A stretch of DNA of 64,000 nt from sequence record PZ386953.1. One strand, 5' to 3'. The translations under genes were made by a program, and so were the position numbers. The notes below the pieces were generated by a model that worked only from the letters and a program-made list of their open reading frames with translations, was not told the origin of the DNA and did no database searches. The DNA is from a phage. Of the stretch, positions 31,557 to 42,786 are shown in pieces; positions within the stretch are counted from its first letter, which is position 1, and each line of letters begins with the position of its first letter.

Positions 31557-32762
31557 ATGATTTTCATCTACGAACATTTCAAAACCCGTAAAGAAGCACG
31601 AGACCGCCGTGCAGAACTTGAGAAGAAGGGTTTCACATGTGCCGTTGAGAAAGGCGACACAACCTGGACACTGGCAGTTGGTGCCCCAGAGTTGTTCGAT
31701 CCTGACCGTGACAGCGTCTGCTACACCCGTGAGGATTTTGAAACCCGCGAAGAGGCCCGTTTATTTCGATACGGTCTGGAAGATAACGGTAAGTACGCTA
31801 TGATCTTAGATTTAGGCGAAGGTTCCGTTAAACGTTGGGGCGTGGTATACCCACTGTGTGTTGTTCACGGTGTGGGGTTCACTGGGGTGGCAATCAAGTC
31901 AGAAGAACCTTTAGTAGAAGTCAAAGATCCGGTGCTGGAGGTGGTGAGCAGTGTGTCTCAGCAACAGACTCGAAACATCGAGCCTTTGGTGGTTATTTGT
32001 GGGGAACTCCTCCAGATCACCTGCAACGAAGGCATTTTTGAAATTCGCCGCAGCGAAAGTGAGGAAGTTTACCAGAAAGTCTTCGACCATATCTCTGTTC
32101 AGGAATATGACGAGGCAATTGGTGAAATCCTTGTCTGGTTGGAACGCAAGAATGAGTTCACTACACTTGCAGACAACCTGATTATGAAAGATGGTAAGCT
32201 CTATTACTACGGTGTAGAGATGCAATCTACCATTGCAAAGAAAATTGAGGAAGATTATATAGATGGAACACTGGACGACCGATATGTTAAATTCCTTGTC
32301 CGTCTGCTACGCAACCCGTCTGCAAAATCTGTGAACATGCTCTACGATTTCATGCAGGCTAATGACATCCAGGTTGCAGAAGATGGTCGAATCATTTGCT
32401 ATAAGGGGGTTCAGTTTAACGGAAGCAAGTGGGTGGATTGGCACAGCGGTAAAGTTCCACAATACCAGGGTGCTTTTGTATCCATGCCTCGTAACTTTGT
32501 AGAAGATGATCCGGAAGCTGCGTGTTCTTATGGCCTGCACTGCGCCAGCAAAGAGTATGCAGCGGGCTATGGCACCGTAATGATGGTTATGGTTGACCCT
32601 GCGGATGTGGTTAGTGTGCCATACCAACACAACAGTGCTAAGTGCCGTGCATGCCGCTACGAAATCGTAGCAGCACCGGAATCACGCAAAGATGGCGATC
32701 CGATTGAATACGTGGTTGACCGTGATGGTAACACTATCGACATTCTTTACGAGGAGGCGTAA
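31557..32762 (+). CDS. hypothetical protein
   Basis: 401-aa ORF, AAGGAGA RBS, tightly coupled to flanking ATPase and helicase genes. Confidence 0.45.
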   Translation: MIFIYEHFKTRKEARDRRAELEKKGFTCAVEKGDTTWTLAVGAPELFDPDRDSVCYTREDFETREEARLFRYGLEDNGKYAMILDLGEGSVKRWGVVYPLCVVHGVGFTGVAIKSEEPLVEVKDPVLEVVSSVSQQQTRNIEPLVVICGELLQITCNEGIFEIRRSESEEVYQKVFDHISVQEYDEAIGEILVWLERKNEFTTLADNLIMKDGKLYYYGVEMQSTIAKKIEEDYIDGTLDDRYVKFLVRLLRNPSAKSVNMLYDFMQANDIQVAEDGRIICYKGVQFNGSKWVDWHSGKVPQYQGAFVSMPRNFVEDDPEAACSYGLHCASKEYAAGYGTVMMVMVDPADVVSVPYQHNSAKCRACRYEIVAAPESRKDGDPIEYVVDRDGNTIDILYEEA

Positions 32763-34470: not shown

Positions 34471-34531
34471 TAAGATGTGAGTATAAAGGGGAGGCACTCC
34501 TCCCCACAAAAACTAAGGAGAGCACCAAACG

Positions 34532-35857
34532 ATGAGTAAAACCAAATTAGAACTAACCTGGATAGGTAAAAACGAGCGCAAAAAGTTAGAGCCGCACATT
34601 TTGTTAGAAGATTCTAGCAAGTCTTACCACAGCCAGAAAGTGACTGAAAACGATATTTTTGATAATAAACTGATTTTTGGAGATAACTTATTAGCATTGA
34701 AGGCGCTAGAGCAAGAGTATGCAGGCAAAGTGAAGTGTGTTTACATAGACCCACCATTCAATACTGGAAGGGCTTTTGAGCACTACGATGATAGCCTTGA
34801 GCATTCCATTTGGCTGGGCTTAATGAGGGATAGGTTAGAAATAATTCGTAATCTTCTAAGTGATGATGGGGTAATATTCGTTCACTTAGATGATTGCGAA
34901 ATGGCGTATTTAAAAGTTTTGATGGACGAGATTTTTGGTCGTGCAAATCAGTTAAATACCATATCGATGACCACAAATTCCCCTTCGGGATTTAAGGCAA
35001 TAGGAGCCACAGTTTTCTCCACAGCAAACTTTTTGCTTGTATATGCAAAAGATCGCACCCAGAAACCGCTTAACAAAATCTATATACCTAAAGGGTATGA
35101 TACAGGATATAACAAATACCTATTAAACCCGGATGACCATTATAAAAATTGGACGTGGTGCGGTATTGCCGATGCGTTTGCAAAGGCCAATGGCTATAAA
35201 GATGCAAAAGAGGCCAAGAAAAAACTGCCTGATACATTCGATGATGAATTAGCACAATTCGCAATTGATAATGCAGAACGTGTATTTCAATCTGTTGCAA
35301 TCGGCGGTGGTGCTAAAATAAAGAGAAAAGAAACTATCGAGAAGTCAAAGAAAGATAGGGATAAGGTTTATGTACATCCAAATGAAGATGTTGAAGGATT
35401 TTATATCGTAAATGGTAGGCAAATGGTCTTTTACTCCAACAGGCTTTTGGAAATTGACGGTGATATGCAACCTGCGGAACTAATAACTGATGTTTGGACA
35501 GACATTAGTTGGAATGGAATAGCAAATGAAGGCGGCGTTAGTTTCAAAAATGGGAAAAAACCAGAAGCGCTTTTGAAGCGAATTTTCGAAATGTGTACGC
35601 GAGAAGGCGATTTGGTATTGGATTCATTCGGTGGTTCGGGAACTACTGCTGCTGTAGCTCACAAGATGAAAAGACGTTGGATCTCAATCGAGCTGGGTGA
35701 TCATTGTCATACCCATATTATTCCGCGCTTGGAAAAAGTGATCGATGGTGAAGATCAAGGTGGTATTTCTAAGTCTGTAAACTGGCAAGGTGGTGGTGGC
35801 TTCAGTTATTACAAACTTGCCCCGACCTTAATTGCGAAAGATAAGTCTGATCAATAA
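34532..35857 (+). CDS. DNA N6-adenine (or N4-cytosine) methyltransferase, beta class
   Basis: Motif IV IDPPFNTG precedes motif I LDSFGGSGTT. Confidence 0.7.
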   Translation: MSKTKLELTWIGKNERKKLEPHILLEDSSKSYHSQKVTENDIFDNKLIFGDNLLALKALEQEYAGKVKCVYIDPPFNTGRAFEHYDDSLEHSIWLGLMRDRLEIIRNLLSDDGVIFVHLDDCEMAYLKVLMDEIFGRANQLNTISMTTNSPSGFKAIGATVFSTANFLLVYAKDRTQKPLNKIYIPKGYDTGYNKYLLNPDDHYKNWTWCGIADAFAKANGYKDAKEAKKKLPDTFDDELAQFAIDNAERVFQSVAIGGGAKIKRKETIEKSKKDRDKVYVHPNEDVEGFYIVNGRQMVFYSNRLLEIDGDMQPAELITDVWTDISWNGIANEGGVSFKNGKKPEALLKRIFEMCTREGDLVLDSFGGSGTTAAVAHKMKRRWISIELGDHCHTHIIPRLEKVIDGEDQGGISKSVNWQGGGGFSYYKLAPTLIAKDKSDQ

Positions 35858-35870
35858 AGAGTACAATCAA

Positions 35871-36176
35871 ATGATGAAATGTTATAAACCATACACTTTT
35901 GAAATCGATTTCGAACTTGACGATATGTTCACTGTGGAAGCTCAGGCAGTTGTCCAGTTGCCAGACCCAGAGTGCCGTGATTCTGATGTTGACTATTACG
36001 GATTTAGACAAATTACCGATGTGCATGTTTACCACAACGGTGAAGAGGTGGACTTCCACCAATTGCCAAACGATATGCGCCACTCAATTTACAAACGTGC
36101 AGCCCGTGAACTAGAGTCCTATCTGGATGCAGCGACGACAGCAGCTGCATTTGCTGAAGAAGTGGGAGGTTTCTGA
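35871..36176 (+). CDS. hypothetical protein
   Basis: ATG downstream of tool TTG start; avoids overlap with the methyltransferase. Confidence 0.35.
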   Translation: MMKCYKPYTFEIDFELDDMFTVEAQAVVQLPDPECRDSDVDYYGFRQITDVHVYHNGEEVDFHQLPNDMRHSIYKRAARELESYLDAATTAAAFAEEVGGF

Positions 36177-36571
36177 TGATTACAGGTGTGAAGATTATCC
36201 AATACCACTTAACCAAATTGGAAGATGCTGAAAAAGAGCTTGCAGAAGTTCTAAATAGTGGATATACTTTGCTATCATGCGCCTGCTCAGACACCTACGC
36301 TGTGTGGACACTTATCCGGAAGGAGGAGCCTGCAGGGATCTTGGTGCCAAACCCTAAGATTATCAGTGAAGTGGATGACTGCTCTCAGGACGGCCTGTCA
36401 GAAGACTGGGAAGCATGGGAAGGTGGTGAAAACCCTGCACCAGGTAAGTGGGTAAAATACAAACTACGTAGCGGTGCACAGCACGCTGGATACTCTGATA
36501 ACCTGGACTGGAGTCATTCTTCACCGGAATCATTGGTAAGTGCATATGATATCGTTGCTTTTCAGGAATAA
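36176..36571 (+). CDS. hypothetical protein
   Basis: 131 aa; ATGA overlap. Confidence 0.4.
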   Translation: MITGVKIIQYHLTKLEDAEKELAEVLNSGYTLLSCACSDTYAVWTLIRKEEPAGILVPNPKIISEVDDCSQDGLSEDWEAWEGGENPAPGKWVKYKLRSGAQHAGYSDNLDWSHSSPESLVSAYDIVAFQE

Positions 36572-36583
36572 GGAGAGAGTGTT

Positions 36584-37066
36584 ATGTCAGATTTTATGTG
36601 GAAAGTAGGTTATGCCTCTCCTGAAATGTGCGAGGCTTGCTTTGTAAAAATAGGCCGCGAGGATATTGACAAAGTGATCTTTAAGTTTCGTGATGTATCT
36701 GTGATCGGCAACCGAGTGCTTAAGCACTTAAAGAATCTGAAGCTCACCAAAAAGAAGTTCTTCGGACTTTTCGAAGAGAAAGTTGATGCTTGGACCCATT
36801 GCATTCAGGAAGCTAAATCTCACTACAGTGCTATCGTTACCCCAGAACGGGTAGCCAAGATGGAAGGATTCATCAACAGCACAGAGTTTGAGTGCCTAAA
36901 GGCTGCCCTTAATAGTTATCCAAAGTGCCTCAAACACCTTGACAAGTATGTAGAAAAGGATGGGGAAATGTATCTCACCCTGGATGCATACTATGAGATG
37001 CAAGAAATTTTAAATTTAGATTTGACATTGGTATCCACCGAGTATACAATAGGTATCCGGGTTTAA
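36584..37066 (+). CDS. hypothetical protein
   Basis: 160 aa; AAGGAGAGAG RBS; terminator follows. Confidence 0.4.
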   Translation: MSDFMWKVGYASPEMCEACFVKIGREDIDKVIFKFRDVSVIGNRVLKHLKNLKLTKKKFFGLFEEKVDAWTHCIQEAKSHYSAIVTPERVAKMEGFINSTEFECLKAALNSYPKCLKHLDKYVEKDGEMYLTLDAYYEMQEILNLDLTLVSTEYTIGIRV

Positions 37067-37070
37067 CACT

Positions 37071-37100
37071 AGGCCCTGCCCGAAAGGGTGGGGCTTTTTG
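37071..37100 (+). terminator. intrinsic terminator
   Basis: GCCCTGCCC-GAAA-GGGTGGGGC then TTTTTG; same 22-mer at 47206. Confidence 0.7.
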
Positions 37101-37117
37101 CATTAGGAGACAGCAAA

Positions 37118-37882
37118 TTGAAATTTATCTATAAAGAACACTACCACAAAGGTGTTGTGTGGAGTCTATTTGACGGATCTGGCGGTGCAGTCATTGACTG
37201 GGCAAAAGCTGGATATCTGTGCCTGTGCTTTAACGCAGAAGGTGCTGACCACGGCAGTTATGCAGAGGTGATCACCGATCATCCCAACATTCACTATGTG
37301 GACTATTGGATTGACCCGTGGTTCCCTCAGGAAACTTTTTGCATGTATCCGGCTCCAGATTTTATTCTTGCATTTCCTCCGTGCACGCATTTAGCGGTAT
37401 CAGGTGCTGCACATTTTAAGAAAAAGCTGGCTAAGGACCCCATGATCCAAATTAATGCTGTAAAGGATGCTCGGGTTGCGGAAGAGCTGGGAGAGATTTA
37501 CGATTGCCCGTGGCATGTAGAGAATCCTGTGGGTGTTATGTCCACACTGTGGCGCAAACCTGATTACCGTTTTCACCCTTCGGATTATGGCGGGTATTTA
37601 CCGGAAGATGATGTAAACCCATGGTTTCCTGAATTTATAGCTCCACGTGATGCCTATCCAAAAATAACTTGCGGCTGGATAGGTAATGGATTTATAATCC
37701 CAGCCACAAAACCTGTCCCGCAAATAGTTGACGCGGTTAGCGGGTATTCCATGCAACACGCCAAGCTGGGTGGAAAGAGTGCAAGAACGAAGATGATTCG
37801 AAGCCTCACACCACGTGGCTGGGCAAAAGCCGTATTCCTAGCAAACGAGCCTGTAGTAAGGAGCAGAATTAATGGGAAGTAA
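37118..37882 (+). CDS. DNA cytosine-C5 methyltransferase-like protein
   Basis: Motif I LFDGSGG, motif IV PPC, motif VI ENP in canonical order; TTG start 7 nt after AGGAGA (tool GTG start lies inside the terminator). Confidence 0.45.
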   Translation: MKFIYKEHYHKGVVWSLFDGSGGAVIDWAKAGYLCLCFNAEGADHGSYAEVITDHPNIHYVDYWIDPWFPQETFCMYPAPDFILAFPPCTHLAVSGAAHFKKKLAKDPMIQINAVKDARVAEELGEIYDCPWHVENPVGVMSTLWRKPDYRFHPSDYGGYLPEDDVNPWFPEFIAPRDAYPKITCGWIGNGFIIPATKPVPQIVDAVSGYSMQHAKLGGKSARTKMIRSLTPRGWAKAVFLANEPVVRSRINGK

Positions 37883-39950
37883 ATTTATGGCATCTGCATA
37901 CAACCGTTTCGGTGAGCCAAACCCGAAAGCAACTAAGTATAAAAGTGGGGGAAGTGTGAAACGAGACTATCGTGATGAAAAAGAAGTTGAAACTGTAGAG
38001 ACTGTTTTAGAAAATACTAAAATTGTCCCTGTCCCACAACAAAATATCGGTCTGATGGCTGCACAATATTTTGGTGTGCGATCAGCATTGTCCCAAGAAG
38101 ACGGTGTGACAGTCACTGCAACATATTTCCCATATTACGACCGCTACGGAAATCTGTCTGGTTTCAAAAAGCGTGACTGGACTATTCCTAAAGAGCAAAG
38201 GGGCCATTTCTCCGTTGTTGGCATCGTAAAGGCCAACTCCCAGATGTTTGGTCAAAAGCTGTGTGCATCTTCCAACAACCGTAAGCAGATTAACGTTTGT
38301 GAGGGAGAAGGTGATGTTATTGCAGCATGGCAGGCTGCATATCAGATACAAGTAAAAGGGATTCTCACCAACGCTAAAGCCCCGGCAAAGGTGAAGCAGT
38401 GGGCTAAAGAGGTCCAGGACGGGATCGACGCAGTTATCAACGGTGGTGATCTGGCAGGAAAACCCTGCCTGCCTTTTGTTGGAATTAACTGTGGATGTGC
38501 AAACGCAGTAGATACTTTTGCAAACAATGAGAAGTTTATCCGTAGCTATGGAACAGTTGTGCTGGCAATGGATAACGATGCAGCTAACGAGGTAGAGAAG
38601 CAAAAACACGTCATTAAAGGTGTTGAGGCCACGCACAATATCGCAGCATTTTTGATGGCTGATAACGTTTACCACGTAGAATACCCTGGTGAAGTAAATG
38701 ACCCTGACGGTGTAAAAGATATCCGAGACATGCTGAAGGCTAAAAAGCTGGAAGATATTGTCAACATGTTCCGGCACCCTGTTAAATATGTGCCTGATGC
38801 TGTGTCGGATTTAGAAGACTTCTCTATCGAGTCTTTGCGGAAAAAGACTTCCAACGGGGTAGATATCAGTGCAGAGTTCCCAAAACTGCAAAAAATGCTA
38901 AAAGGCTTGCACAAAGGGACACTTGTAATGCTTACAGGTCCATCAGGCGGCGGTAAAACAACCGTGGCTAAAAAACTGGAACACTGTATTGCAAGATACC
39001 TAATGGACCCGACATGCCCGAAGGCCGATGACTATGAAGAGGATGATCGTCTATGCATGATTCATCTTGAGGAGGACCCAGAGGAAGCAATTAACTCCTT
39101 GTATGCAAACCAGTTAGGGTTTGATGTTAAAGAGTTTGTTGAAGATCCTAGCCAGTTTTTAACTGATCAAGAACACGCAGAGATTCACCAATCATGGGCA
39201 AAAGCTGGAAAAATCAAAGTGTTCAAACATTTCGGGTCTATTCCAGTGGACGAGTTGATTACCAAGCTTAAGCAAATGGTTTGCCTGTACCATTGTCGTT
39301 ATATTGTGCTGGATCACCTGTCCATGGTAATTTCAGGGCTTAATGTTAAGGATGAGCGAAAAGAACTGGACATGGCTATGACCCAACTGGCTGCGTTTTG
39401 TAAGCAGTTTAACGTGTTTATCTTGGTGATCGCTCACCTCAAACGTACAGAGATTGTGCCCCCTAAGGACAAGGATGGTAACCCATTACCTTTCTGGTAT
39501 CCTGTGCGAAAAGAGAATTTGCGAGGATCGGCTGGGCTTGAACAGTTGAGTTGGGTAGTCATAGGTGTCGAGGCCGAAGAAATGGTGGATCGTTCTCGTG
39601 GACGTGTCCGTCTGGTAGGTCTTAAAAACCGTCCAGCAAAAACTTTAGGTATTGCTGACACTTTAGTTATGGATCCGCATACAGGTAAGTTCCATGATGC
39701 CAGTAATTGGTACTGGGACAAAGAAATGCAGATGTTTACAGACGGAGAAGGTGGGGAGGTTGTTTGGAGACCTCAGGCTATGTTTGAGGATCAGGAGCAT
39801 GCAGTTGTAGAAACACCTATGGGCAAGGTTGTGGCTGATAAGGTTGTAACACCCACTGTCAAGCCTATTGACACGCAGGAAGACCTCCAATACGATGATC
39901 CATCCTCTGATCCGGTCCCTGGTTTTGAGGATGATGAAACACCTTTTTAA
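37872..39950 (+). CDS. primase-helicase (TOPRIM + DnaB-like)
   Basis: TOPRIM-like EGEGD and DNDAANE; Walker A GPSGGGKTT; precedes the polymerase. Confidence 0.7.
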   Translation: MGSKFMASAYNRFGEPNPKATKYKSGGSVKRDYRDEKEVETVETVLENTKIVPVPQQNIGLMAAQYFGVRSALSQEDGVTVTATYFPYYDRYGNLSGFKKRDWTIPKEQRGHFSVVGIVKANSQMFGQKLCASSNNRKQINVCEGEGDVIAAWQAAYQIQVKGILTNAKAPAKVKQWAKEVQDGIDAVINGGDLAGKPCLPFVGINCGCANAVDTFANNEKFIRSYGTVVLAMDNDAANEVEKQKHVIKGVEATHNIAAFLMADNVYHVEYPGEVNDPDGVKDIRDMLKAKKLEDIVNMFRHPVKYVPDAVSDLEDFSIESLRKKTSNGVDISAEFPKLQKMLKGLHKGTLVMLTGPSGGGKTTVAKKLEHCIARYLMDPTCPKADDYEEDDRLCMIHLEEDPEEAINSLYANQLGFDVKEFVEDPSQFLTDQEHAEIHQSWAKAGKIKVFKHFGSIPVDELITKLKQMVCLYHCRYIVLDHLSMVISGLNVKDERKELDMAMTQLAAFCKQFNVFILVIAHLKRTEIVPPKDKDGNPLPFWYPVRKENLRGSAGLEQLSWVVIGVEAEEMVDRSRGRVRLVGLKNRPAKTLGIADTLVMDPHTGKFHDASNWYWDKEMQMFTDGEGGEVVWRPQAMFEDQEHAVVETPMGKVVADKVVTPTVKPIDTQEDLQYDDPSSDPVPGFEDDETPF

Positions 39951-40008
39951 TGTTTAACAAAGAGTGGGAGGGGTAGTACAACCGCCTCCCCTTTAAGGAG
40001 AACTGTAT

Positions 40009-42786
40009 ATGAGCATGTGGTCGTTCGACTTTGAGTCATCCGGTTTGCTGGAAGATCCAGATCTTTATTATCACTGCGGCCTGTTTAAAGAGCTGAATAA
40101 GAACCGTTTTATGCTGTTCCTTCCTCTAAATGACCGCACACACTACTCCGAAGAGGATATAGAGAAGGCTAAGAACTTTATTCTGGCAAAGAAAACTCTT
40201 CATAAAGATTTTGAAGTTCGCATAGCAGATTTTTCGGAGTTGGAAGGTTGGCTTACAGGCAATTCCGACTGGTCACCAACAGCTTTGAACTGCCATAACT
40301 GCTACAGTTATGACTTTATGCTGATGGAAAGATTATCCGGTATTCATTTTGATATGTTCCGTGATCCTAAATGCATGGGGACTATCAACGACCACCAGGT
40401 TAACCTGTTTGATACGTTGGCGATGAGCAGAATCTTGTGGCCTGATCGCCCTTTACCAAAAGGTTGTCCGGACTCTGTATTCAACCCGGTTACTAAGAAA
40501 ATGCAGCCTGTTGGTCCTCACGGCCTTATGGCATGGGGCTACGCCCTTGGTAACCAGAAAGTTCAAATTGATGACTGGCGCGATCTTCCGTTGTGGAAGT
40601 ATGTGGATCGTGTATTCGAGGACGTTATCATCCAGGAGCTGCTCTGGAAAGAGCTGGTAGCGGAATCAAAAGGTGTATTCTACGGCAAATCTGACATGCA
40701 GAACTTTATGTACGATCCAGCCAAAGAGAAGCCGAAAGGGTTCAAGAAAATCACCTGGAAGAACGCATTACGCCGAGGCATGCTGCAGCACTTCCTGATG
40801 GAGCTGCAGGCCCGTCAGGGTGTATACTTCGACATAGATGGAGCTATTGCTTTACGTGACCGTTGTGATGCGTGGATGAAAGAAATCGCTGATCGTGTTG
40901 AACCTCAACTTCCTTTAAAAGAGCTGTCAATGTCTCAGCGGCCCAAGTTCCCTGAAAAGCCGTTTAACCAAGATGGGACAATCTCCAACAATGGTTGGAA
41001 ATGGTTAAAAGATAAGCTTGGCTATCCTGTGGACATGAGTGCTTTGGAGTTCAAAGCCCCGCCTAAGCGAGCATTTACCTCCACAGGAGATGTCAGCAAG
41101 ATGGGGATAAAATGGTGTGAAGAGATGGGCTGCAAAGACCCTGATAAGATGGCTGATTTCTTGAGAGGCTATATTAAGGGCACTTCCACACCACAACCTT
41201 TACCTAAAGAGCTGATGGATCAGGCAATAAGTGATCTACAGCAGAAGCGAATGCCGGACTGCAAGATACCTATGAAAATCAGCAATCAGGACGACATTAA
41301 GCGATACCTGATCAGTGCTGGTTGGCTTCCGACAATGTGGAGAACTAAGGATGTAACTAAAGACAGCAAGAAGAAAGCTCTACCTGATGCAGATGTTGAT
41401 GCACGAGTATATGCATACATGGACGAGCTTTTAGAGTCAGAGTATTGTGACCTGATTATCAACTTCTGGAACAAAACTGATGCTAAGTTTCAGACAACCG
41501 TGCACAAGTTCCGAAGCTTTCCTAACTCCGAAAGGATTAAAAAGGAAGTATTCGGGAAAATACGTAGAAAAGCCAGAGCACTTATTACTTCTCCGCAGCT
41601 GAAAGATACGTTTGGACACCTATGCCCAAATCTTGAAAAATTGAACGGAGAGATGGCTAAAGATATCGTCTTGTGGTTATCATTGCGAAACCGCAGATCG
41701 GTCCTTGATCCAATCAAGGAGGATAAGGTTGATACTGGTCTTCTTAATCACCCACGTTTGAAGATTGACCATAAGCTTCCTGCTAAAAGTTCTGGATTAA
41801 CAAACACTTCCCGACAGAAACACAGTATTTGTGCAAACATGCCTAAACCATCTCCTAAAGTGGTTATGGGTAAAGAGATGCGCAGTCTGTGGGGTGTTCC
41901 TCCAGGATACTTTGAGATCGGTATTGACGGGTCCAACTTAGAGCAGCTTATCGGGGCTTGGGGTGCCTTTGAGTTCGACAACGGCCTGTATTACGATGTT
42001 GTAAGTAACGGGGATGCCCACCAAAACAATGCTGAGGCATATACGAAAGTAGCAGGTAGAGAGGTGTCTCGTAACGACGGTAAACCTATCACGTACGGGG
42101 TTATGTATGGGGCACAAAAAGATAAAGTTGCAGACATGCTGGATATCTCCCCAGAGTTGGGGCAAAGGGTAATCGATGCGCTTTGGGATGCCAACCCTGG
42201 TCTTAAAGGGCGTAAAGAGGATCTGGAGAAATTCTGGGAAGCAACGGGTAAGAAGTTTATCTACTCTTTTGATGGTCATGCTATCTGGACCCGATCTAAA
42301 CACTCTTTACTTAATGCATACCAACAAAATGGTGGTGCATCGTTGTGTGACTTAGTTGGGATACTCATGCACCACCAAATGGTGAAGCGTGGGTGGTACG
42401 ATGAAGGTGTTCGTCGTATTATTTATTACCATGATGAGTACCAACTTCAGGTCCCTGACACGCCTAAGTATAAGACTGTGTACACCTTCGACACAATTGA
42501 AGAATTGGAAGCATTTAAGGCAGAGCAGGAGGCCAAACTTCATGTGTTTGACGGTCATAAGTACAAAAAGGCACGCAAGGATGAAAACGGAAACGAAGTG
42601 GTTGACAGAGACGGAAACACGGTGTACGATCCTATCCTGAACGATGACGGAAAGCTTGAACTTATCTGGAGCCCTGTGGGTGAAATGGTGGTGCATTGCT
42701 TCTGGCAAGCTTCTAAAATGATGGGCGTTCCATTCCAGATCACAGGTGAATACTTGTGTGGTCGGAACTGGGGTGATTGTCACTAA
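40009..42786 (+). CDS. family A DNA polymerase with 3'-5' exonuclease domain
   Basis: Exo I FDFES, motif B K-x3-YG (RNDGKPITYGVMYG), motif C YHDE; AAGGAGA RBS. Confidence 0.8.
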   Translation: MSMWSFDFESSGLLEDPDLYYHCGLFKELNKNRFMLFLPLNDRTHYSEEDIEKAKNFILAKKTLHKDFEVRIADFSELEGWLTGNSDWSPTALNCHNCYSYDFMLMERLSGIHFDMFRDPKCMGTINDHQVNLFDTLAMSRILWPDRPLPKGCPDSVFNPVTKKMQPVGPHGLMAWGYALGNQKVQIDDWRDLPLWKYVDRVFEDVIIQELLWKELVAESKGVFYGKSDMQNFMYDPAKEKPKGFKKITWKNALRRGMLQHFLMELQARQGVYFDIDGAIALRDRCDAWMKEIADRVEPQLPLKELSMSQRPKFPEKPFNQDGTISNNGWKWLKDKLGYPVDMSALEFKAPPKRAFTSTGDVSKMGIKWCEEMGCKDPDKMADFLRGYIKGTSTPQPLPKELMDQAISDLQQKRMPDCKIPMKISNQDDIKRYLISAGWLPTMWRTKDVTKDSKKKALPDADVDARVYAYMDELLESEYCDLIINFWNKTDAKFQTTVHKFRSFPNSERIKKEVFGKIRRKARALITSPQLKDTFGHLCPNLEKLNGEMAKDIVLWLSLRNRRSVLDPIKEDKVDTGLLNHPRLKIDHKLPAKSSGLTNTSRQKHSICANMPKPSPKVVMGKEMRSLWGVPPGYFEIGIDGSNLEQLIGAWGAFEFDNGLYYDVVSNGDAHQNNAEAYTKVAGREVSRNDGKPITYGVMYGAQKDKVADMLDISPELGQRVIDALWDANPGLKGRKEDLEKFWEATGKKFIYSFDGHAIWTRSKHSLLNAYQQNGGASLCDLVGILMHHQMVKRGWYDEGVRRIIYYHDEYQLQVPDTPKYKTVYTFDTIEELEAFKAEQEAKLHVFDGHKYKKARKDENGNEVVDRDGNTVYDPILNDDGKLELIWSPVGEMVVHCFWQASKMMGVPFQITGEYLCGRNWGDCH

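Follow-up and report, generated by a model that had tools for sequence, protein, structure and literature searches.

Two methyltransferase genes in the replication module of an rV5-like phage

A 64,000-nucleotide stretch of phage DNA (sequence record PZ386953.1), referred to here as the window, carries two genes for DNA methyltransferases of different chemical classes. Open reading frame (ORF) A encodes a beta-class protein related to the modification subunits (Mod) of type III restriction-modification (RM) systems, and ORF B encodes a short protein with motifs of C5-cytosine methyltransferases. An earlier note, made from the letters of the window, had proposed two such orphan enzymes about 1.2 kb apart. 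The motifs on which it relied (DPPF and FGGSGTT in ORF A; FDGSGG, PPC, and ENP in ORF B) lie on the + strand where it had placed them, and the two genes are separated by 1230 to 1260 nt; the start codon of ORF B had to be corrected (Table 1). The assignment to different classes was borne out by the Pfam match of ORF A and by the C5 motifs and predicted fold of ORF B.

A 4-kb stretch around both genes was 99.3% identical to Escherichia phage Murica and had 97 to 99% identity with over 100 further rV5-like phages (Vequintavirus). On the + strand, rIIA/rIIB, a Dda/Pif1-like helicase gene, and a 113-aa ORF are followed by ORF A, three small ORFs, ORF B, and the genes for a primase/helicase and the DNA polymerase. 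Both methylase genes are part of the replication module of an rV5-like myovirus. The GenBank label of ORF A in more than 100 rV5-like records is "putative adenine methyltransferase," and that of ORF B is "Dcm-like C5 cytosine methyltransferase" or "site specific DNA methylase."

The Pfam scan covered nine ORFs between positions 31557 and 39950. No nuclease domain was detected in the flanking and intervening ORFs by Pfam, PHROGs, or PADLOC. Likewise, tblastn with the restriction subunit (Res), the SNF2 protein, and the Mod C-terminal domain (CTD) of the donor system described below returned no match in the window or in the complete genome of the related phage Bas51. ORF A and ORF B are orphan (solitary) methyltransferases, as had been proposed.

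Table 1. Positions of the two methyltransferase genes, their motifs, and associated features in the window
Feature	Position	Strand	Remarks
Segment common to phage and E. coli mod	34519..35866	+	1.35 kb; blastn identity 93.8% over 1363 columns
ORF A, orphan beta-class DNA methyltransferase, putatively N6-adenine; type III Mod without C-terminal domain	34532..35857	+	441 aa
ORF A motif IV, DPPF (catalytic)	34748..34759	+	aa 73-76; aligns with DPPY in the Mods of EcoP15I and H. pylori
ORF A motif I, FGGSGTT (S-adenosylmethionine binding)	35627..35647	+	aa 366-372
Truncation junction	35846..35873	+	Small deletion causing a frameshift; reading frame ends ...KDKSDQ-stop
Three small ORFs between the methylase genes	35832-36176, 36176-36571, 36584-37066	+	PHROGs 4240, 11995, 12900; function unknown
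Terminator-like hairpin after the upstream 160-aa ORF	37071..37096	+	11-bp stem, 7 G-C pairs, T-run; overlaps GTG 37088
Shine-Dalgarno sequence of ORF B, AGGAGA	37105..37110	+	7 nt upstream of TTG 37118
ORF B, short orphan C5-cytosine DNA methyltransferase (predicted), phrog_757 family	37118..37882	+	254 aa; TTG start
ORF B motif I, FDGSGG	37169..37186	+	aa 18-23 (254-aa numbering)
ORF B motif IV, FPPC, with catalytic Cys	37373..37384	+	aa 86-89; C89 (254-aa numbering) is C99 in 264-aa numbering
ORF B motif VI, ENP	37520..37528	+	aa 135-137; Glu equivalent to that of ENV

ORF A derives from an E. coli type III Mod and is shortened

ORF A matched the Pfam family N6_N4_Mtase (PF01555) with an E value of 5.9e-42 and a score of 144.5 bits, against a cutoff of 26.7. 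Motif IV lies N-terminal to motif I, and the order of motifs is therefore that of the beta class. An Asp instead of a Ser in motif IV favors an N6-adenine target, and the Asp in the DPPF of ORF A favors its classification as an N6-adenine rather than an N4 methylase. The PADLOC model MTase_III (PDLC03636) was matched by residues 1 to 439 at an E value of 6.6e-204, over positions 2 to 444 of the 575 in the profile. The best matches in the PDB were type III Mods, those of H. pylori (6k0w; 3e-29) and EcoP15I (4zcf; 4e-24). ORF A has an N-terminal domain (NTD), a split methyltransferase domain, and a central target recognition domain (TRD), the latter between motifs IV and I, all homologous to those of known Mods. 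It aligns with residues 52 to 522 of EcoP15I Mod, so that the parts required for methylation have been kept and the Res-docking domain is gone. The 120 best homologues were on average 56% identical to ORF A in the target recognition region versus 73 to 75% in the catalytic lobes. This conservation suggests that the homologues share one specificity or have similar ones.

A 567-aa Mod encoded on the chromosome of E. coli strain 2014C-3011 (WP_024226319) was 96% identical to ORF A at the amino acid level over 439 residues, or 99% of ORF A. Hundreds of other homologues, 560 to 600 aa long and distributed over many bacterial phyla, were 58 to 76% identical. The segment common to the phage and the E. 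coli mod gene begins within the ribosome-binding site, 13 nt upstream of the ATG, and stops at about codon 450 of the 567-codon bacterial gene. Its GC content is 39.4%, compared with 43.8% for the window. At the junction, a frameshift ends the phage reading frame, and both protein and DNA alignments revealed that the bacterial codons which follow (INKEYN) remain readable in the phage in another frame. The bacterial Mod extends for 126 residues beyond the match, and ORF A lacks the Res-docking CTD. In the EcoP15I structure, the CTD (aa 539 to 644) of one Mod protomer makes extensive contacts with Res, whereas the Mod dimer is formed via the NTD and methyltransferase domains and Mod2 is a stand-alone methylase (PMC4490356). 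These alignments identify ORF A as a shortened and recent horizontal capture of an E. coli type III Mod. In the literature, we found no earlier description of the rV5-group adenine methylase as a 94%-nucleotide-identical copy of a type III mod gene trimmed of its Res-contact domain.

The first of the three small ORFs, which encodes 114 aa and lies downstream of ORF A, had weak matches to small PHROGs labeled "DNA methyltransferase" (E = 2e-5). It was considered as a carrier of the missing Mod CTD and rejected, as just the 6-residue out-of-frame relic matches.

In E. coli 2014C-3011, mod is directly upstream of a gene for a 912-aa protein that matches REase_III (E = 8.9e-191). The island that contains them (NZ_CP027591, positions 5062284 to 5071633) adjoins tRNA-Sec and a degraded integrase gene and is composed, in order, of a small helix-turn-helix (HTH) gene, a DrmD-like SNF2 gene, AbiD, a hypothetical gene, Mod, and the 912-aa Res. 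Of 5426 complete E. coli genomes, 29 carry it. The SNF2 ... Mod-Res frame recurs around an Acinetobacter homologue, where other genes are inserted. The donor Mod-Res pair is always accompanied by an upstream DrmD-like SNF2 gene, and the defense genes in between vary: in E. coli, AbiD is accompanied by AIPR or by a hypothetical gene, and Acinetobacter has AAA_21 and DUF4276 as a pair. The interval between SNF2 and Mod looks like an internal hotspot or, alternatively, like part of a system of three genes scored by PADLOC as plain type III. The annotation pipeline PGAP calls the HTH gene "mads1"; an identification of the island as MADS or as ARMADA II was rejected, since it has neither mad6-8 nor a DUF1998 helicase. 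The most fitting description is a type III RM system that includes a DrmD-like SNF2 gene and has AbiD inserted.

The coding sequences of ORF A and the E. coli mod gene differ by 49 synonymous and 18 nonsynonymous changes, corresponding to an omega (dN/dS) of 0.085. Between two phages, in the comparison with Bas51, omega was 0.074. Because both values are low, the truncated gene has been kept under purifying selection. In addition, an equally truncated 444-aa copy with 84% identity was located between the PhoH and ClpP genes of another myovirus contig (positions 6001 to 7335), which is a different locus. The short form therefore appears to circulate among phages, and its presence at two loci suggests that it moves between phage genomes.

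ORF B is a minimal C5-type protein of a widespread phage family

The mechanical gene call for ORF B began at GTG 37088 and predicted 264 aa. Because this codon is within the terminator-like hairpin and a strong Shine-Dalgarno sequence precedes TTG 37118, the true gene most likely encodes 254 aa, close to the length of about 255 aa given in the earlier note; the Bas51 annotation has the same start. A sigma-70 promoter-like site near consensus (TTGACA-17-TACAAT; 11 of 12 positions) was noticed at 37022-37050, within the end of the 160-aa ORF. It is directly upstream of the strong hairpin, which would be an odd order if both were functional.

The suspicion that this enzyme is atypical was justified. 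No match was obtained for ORF B in Pfam, NCBIfam, or PADLOC, and the C5 methylase family PF00145 gave none even at an E value of 0.1, although 17 of 25 diverse homologues matched this family weakly (best E value, 1.3e-6). The catalytic Cys aligns with C81 of M.HhaI and with the PC of Dcm. Neither QxRxR (motif VIII) nor GN (motif X) was recognizable, and the sequence RSLTPRG resembles motif IX (RxLTPRE) or else the motif X of DNMT3 (GRSWSVP). Alignments of the family with E. coli Dcm by hhalign, and with M.HhaI and Dcm by hmmsearch, reach only motif IV. Between motif VI and the C-terminal helix, where a target recognition domain of about 80 to 100 aa is usual, ORF B has only a short stretch.

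Residues 10 to 261 of the 264-aa version matched phrog_757 (E = 3.4e-87), and 3549 homologues of about 225 to 260 aa were collected, so that the motifs are not chance matches. Invariant in the 25 diverse homologues were PPC, ENP, and GG..TK.IRSL.PR (which includes RSLTPR), among other positions. When the family profile was compared with the PDB, only C5 methyltransferases were matched, weakly. An AlphaFold model of ORF B, with a mean predicted local distance difference test (pLDDT) score of 85.6 and a predicted template modeling (pTM) score of 0.86, was most similar in Foldseek to the catalytic domains of DNMT3A/B (E of about 1e-6). ORF B is thus predicted by its model to have the three-dimensional fold of C5 methyltransferases.

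Of 50,697 phage records, 1506 contained a member of the family, the majority of them from phages of Escherichia, Klebsiella, and Salmonella. Their genetic contexts differ and include the nin region of a lambdoid prophage next to a PF05869 Dam gene, a T1-like phage, and T4-like phages; no conserved nuclease neighbor was found at the lambdoid prophage, T1-like, and T4-like loci. In the lambdoid E. coli prophage, the gene is two genes downstream of the small PF05869 Dam and just upstream of ninG. The pairing of a small Dam gene with a short Dcm gene is thus seen repeatedly in unrelated phages, in this prophage as in the rV5-like genomes.

One relative has been studied experimentally. According to a preprint (bioRxiv 10.1101/2023.08.16.553469), retron Ec86 is triggered by a "Dcm-like" gene of 711 bp from the T1-like phage K42. 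Mass spectrometry coupled to liquid chromatography (LC-MS) in the same work revealed that wild-type K42 Dcm raised 5-methylcytosine (5mC) in the multicopy single-stranded DNA (msDNA) of the retron, whereas a C82A/E128A/K175A/K176A mutant did not. A 236-aa protein of Hanrivervirus phage vB_EcoM egaa, likewise encoded by a 711-bp gene, was 53% identical to ORF B. Since this protein has exactly C82, E128, K175, and K176, located in its FPPC, ENP, and FKKTC motifs, at the residues mutated in K42 Dcm, the latter very probably belongs to the ORF B family. C99, E145, and K192 of ORF B (264-aa numbering) align with C82, E128, and K175 of the egaa protein; the position of K176 is occupied by Ile.

Proposed function of the two methyltransferases

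We infer from these observations that both proteins are active as stand-alone methylases on replicating phage DNA, ORF A being a captured Mod without its CTD that is directed against a donor-type system and ORF B a minimal C5 enzyme. We assign this interpretation a probability of roughly 0.65. ORF A would be synthesized during infection and would methylate the recognition site of donor-type type III systems on replicating phage DNA. Progeny would then be protected in the minority of strains which harbor the donor system or one of the same specificity, and the loss of the CTD would keep ORF A out of a restriction complex with host Res. ORF B would act as a minimal C5-cytosine methyltransferase with the chemistry of the PPC Cys and the ENP Glu, adding 5mC at a short motif. 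Because the truncated ORF A is derived from, and 96% identical to, one particular Mod, it is predicted to protect against that system only, and the two enzymes together probably provide narrow rather than broad protection.

Virion methylation in the related phage Bas51

Bas51 (WalterGehring, MZ501111) has four putative methylase genes, bas51_0070, bas51_0074, bas51_0176, and bas51_0200, the first of which is the orthologue of ORF A. Native sequencing of its virion DNA was reported in 2025 (PMC12548924); the modification called was N6-methyladenine (m6A), and cytosine modification was not called. In wild-type virions, m6A was assigned to 1405 GATC, 509 GTAC, and 576 other adenines, and in a T83P mutant of "the N6 adenine methyltransferase" to 35 GATC, 511 GTAC, and 349 other adenines. 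The genome contains 703 GATC and 258 GTAC sites, that is, 1406 and 516 adenines. GATC and GTAC are essentially fully methylated in Bas51 virions, the latter to about 99% (509 to 511 of 516) and independently of bas51_0176. ORF A was considered as the source of GATC methylation and rejected. Only bas51_0176, which encodes 177 aa and lies outside the window, is compatible with the escape mutations D69G, D79G, and T83P, and therefore the m6A at GATC does not come from ORF A.

E. coli K-12 has, to our knowledge, no GTAC methylase, and the GTAC methylation is phage-encoded. As adenine methylases that could be responsible, only the ORF A orthologue bas51_0070 and bas51_0200 remain. It is conceivable that ORF A itself generates the m6A on both strands of GTAC and acts as a type II-like orphan on a palindromic site, and bas51_0200 lacks any match in Pfam or the PDB. 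We nevertheless regard this as doubtful, at about one chance in four. It is well established that known type III Mods use asymmetric sites and methylate one strand (see also PMC4490356), and the bacterial homologue of ORF A is paired with Res. Furthermore, bas51_0200 (272 aa) is an equally good candidate, with a clear motif I (EPSAGRGSF) and NPPF.

Several points weigh against our interpretation that ORF A and ORF B are active in the way proposed above. The published Bas51 motifs comprise only GATC, which is explained by bas51_0176, and GTAC, plus the 349 to 576 other sites, with no motif assigned to ORF A; for a type III Mod, the palindromic GTAC would be an uncommon site. Without its CTD, the ORF A enzyme could be impaired. 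Since the donor system is rare in E. coli, the selective benefit of a matching methylase is not obvious. The CCWGG specificity of K42 Dcm was assumed from E. coli Dcm and not measured (bioRxiv 10.1101/2023.08.16.553469). Apart from the Bas51 paper, we found no methylation data on Vequintavirus or rV5 in the literature, and no 5mC data for rV5-like phages.

Alternative roles

A variant of the proposed function of ORF A concerns the resident enzyme. Because ORF A is 96% identical to the donor Mod and has kept the NTD/methyltransferase dimer interface and lost the Res-docking CTD, mixed dimers between the two proteins are conceivable. ORF A might then act as a dominant-negative poison of Mod2Res1 assembly in addition to methylating phage DNA. 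We consider this unlikely, although less so than the remaining alternatives. If it were true, enzymes of the donor type would be switched off directly, and the exact removal of the CTD would represent an adaptation and not an accident.

Only slightly less probable is that the methylases serve the biology of the phage itself, for example, replication, packaging, gene timing, or evasion of mismatch repair, or that they counter methylation-sensing defenses, instead of evading restriction. Both genes are in the replication module, between the Dda-like helicase and the primase/helicase and polymerase genes, relatives of ORF B occupy early regions or replication regions in phages that differ greatly, and in Drexlerviridae no simple link of methylase genes with restriction resistance was found. 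However, the near identity of ORF A to the Mod of a restriction system argues for an antirestriction role. Moreover, phage methylases that trigger retrons are documented liabilities, which implies a compensating, defense-related benefit.

In the earlier note, dual genome methylation was expected to give broad protection from host restriction. The presence of two chemistries (m6A and 5mC) in one genome and the full methylation of Bas51 virions at GATC and GTAC would be in line with dense modification of this kind. On the other hand, plating data of the BASEL study described the Vequintavirinae as "exceptionally susceptible" to the RM systems tested, which were of types I, II, and III, and this group is also targeted by Druantia III and ARMADA II. 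Broad protection is thus not supported, and the published plating data largely refute it; it is also at odds with the origin of GATC methylation from another gene and with the derivation of ORF A from one specific system. We consider it improbable. Of the dual methylation itself, the two enzyme classes in the window stand, but the picture was incomplete, given that Bas51 has four putative methylases, including the one responsible for GATC.

That ORF A is a functionless, decaying remnant of horizontal transfer is more improbable still. The frameshift truncation and the out-of-frame relic codons downstream of it might be taken as signs of decay, but omega is low both against the bacterial gene and between phages, the frame is intact in the listed Vequintavirus relatives, all catalytic motifs have been retained, and a different phage maintains a similar form, of 444 aa, at another locus.

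Least probable of all, ORF B might transfer a nonmethyl group, such as carboxymethyl from host carboxy-S-adenosylmethionine (Cx-SAM) in the manner of CmoX, or act on RNA: the invariant Arg of "IRSLTP" may match the position of R350 in CmoX (N304 in M.HhaI), E. coli makes Cx-SAM, and Dnmt2 tRNA methylases are also among the fold matches, yet all 25 family members have FPPC and not the SPPC that defines CmoX, and K42 Dcm, very probably of this family, gave 5mC by LC-MS. DNMT3A presumably carries an Arg at the same position (GRSW) and uses S-adenosylmethionine. CmoX is usually accompanied by a neighboring cmoA, and no CmoA-like Pfam match was obtained among the nine ORFs scanned.

Comparison with known systems

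ORF A shares the beta-class motif order, the motifs DPPF (DPPY in EcoP15I and H. pylori) and FGGSGTT, the N-terminal region, the split methyltransferase domain, and the TRD with EcoP15I Mod, H. pylori Mod, and the E. coli Mod of the system inserted next to tRNA-Sec. Unlike these type III Mods, it lacks the last approximately 126 residues, which make up the CTD that contacts Res in EcoP15I. The phage also differs from the donor system in that neither res nor the DrmD-like SNF2 gene was detected by tblastn in the window and Bas51, and ORF A is instead placed in the phage replication module. Lactococcal 936-type phages reportedly have methylases captured from host RM systems (PMC4190342). The situation is similar in that a lytic phage carries an orphan copy of the methylase of a host restriction system; it is different in that the donor of ORF A was a type III Mod, that the Res-docking domain was trimmed, and that a protective role is a proposal.

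ORF B resembles the Dcm of K42/KarlJaspers, with which it very probably shares a family. The two are of similar length (254 and 236 aa), their catalytic Cys, Glu, and first Lys occupy equivalent positions, and DNMT3A is the best structural match in both cases. In contrast to K42 Dcm, ORF B has an Ile at the position of K176 and comes from a different phage family, and of the two it is K42 Dcm for which activity and triggering of a retron have been reported. With M.HhaI, M.HaeIII, and Dcm (PF00145) and with DNMT3A/B, ORF B has in common the predicted Rossmann-type C5 fold, motif I, the PC Cys, and a Glu like that of ENV. Unlike canonical C5 enzymes, it falls below the Pfam threshold and is 70 to 220 aa shorter (M.HhaI, 327 aa; Dcm, 472 aa).

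Orphan phage methylases, including captures from host RM systems, are an already known kind of gene, and relatives of ORF B have already been studied. As the antirestriction device is a familiar one and both genes had been annotated, the finding as first written therefore adds little. What the origin of ORF A documents is very recent gene flow from a type III restriction system of E. coli into a widespread group of phages that are candidates for therapy. The break before the Res-contact domain provides a clean, testable case of a phage that keeps the self-protective half of a defense system. It should also be noted that rV5-like phages have up to four methylases and yet are sensitive to restriction, and two phage methylases related to these are already known as triggers of retrons. 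Therefore, methylase genes may be as much a liability as a shield, a question that matters for the prediction of host range in phage therapy. Retrons sense relatives of both kinds of enzyme.

Other observations

Bas51 carries two putative homing endonuclease genes, one between the genes for the primase/helicase and the DNA polymerase and one within the polymerase gene. At the position of the first, the window has only a 58-nt gap (39950-40009), and its polymerase ORF of 925 aa is uninterrupted.

Between 16 and 39 unannotated MG0656xx records that are named "Campylobacter phage" (host, C. jejuni) were 97 to 99% identical in this region to rV5-like phages of E. coli. These records are probably mislabeled or contaminant assemblies.

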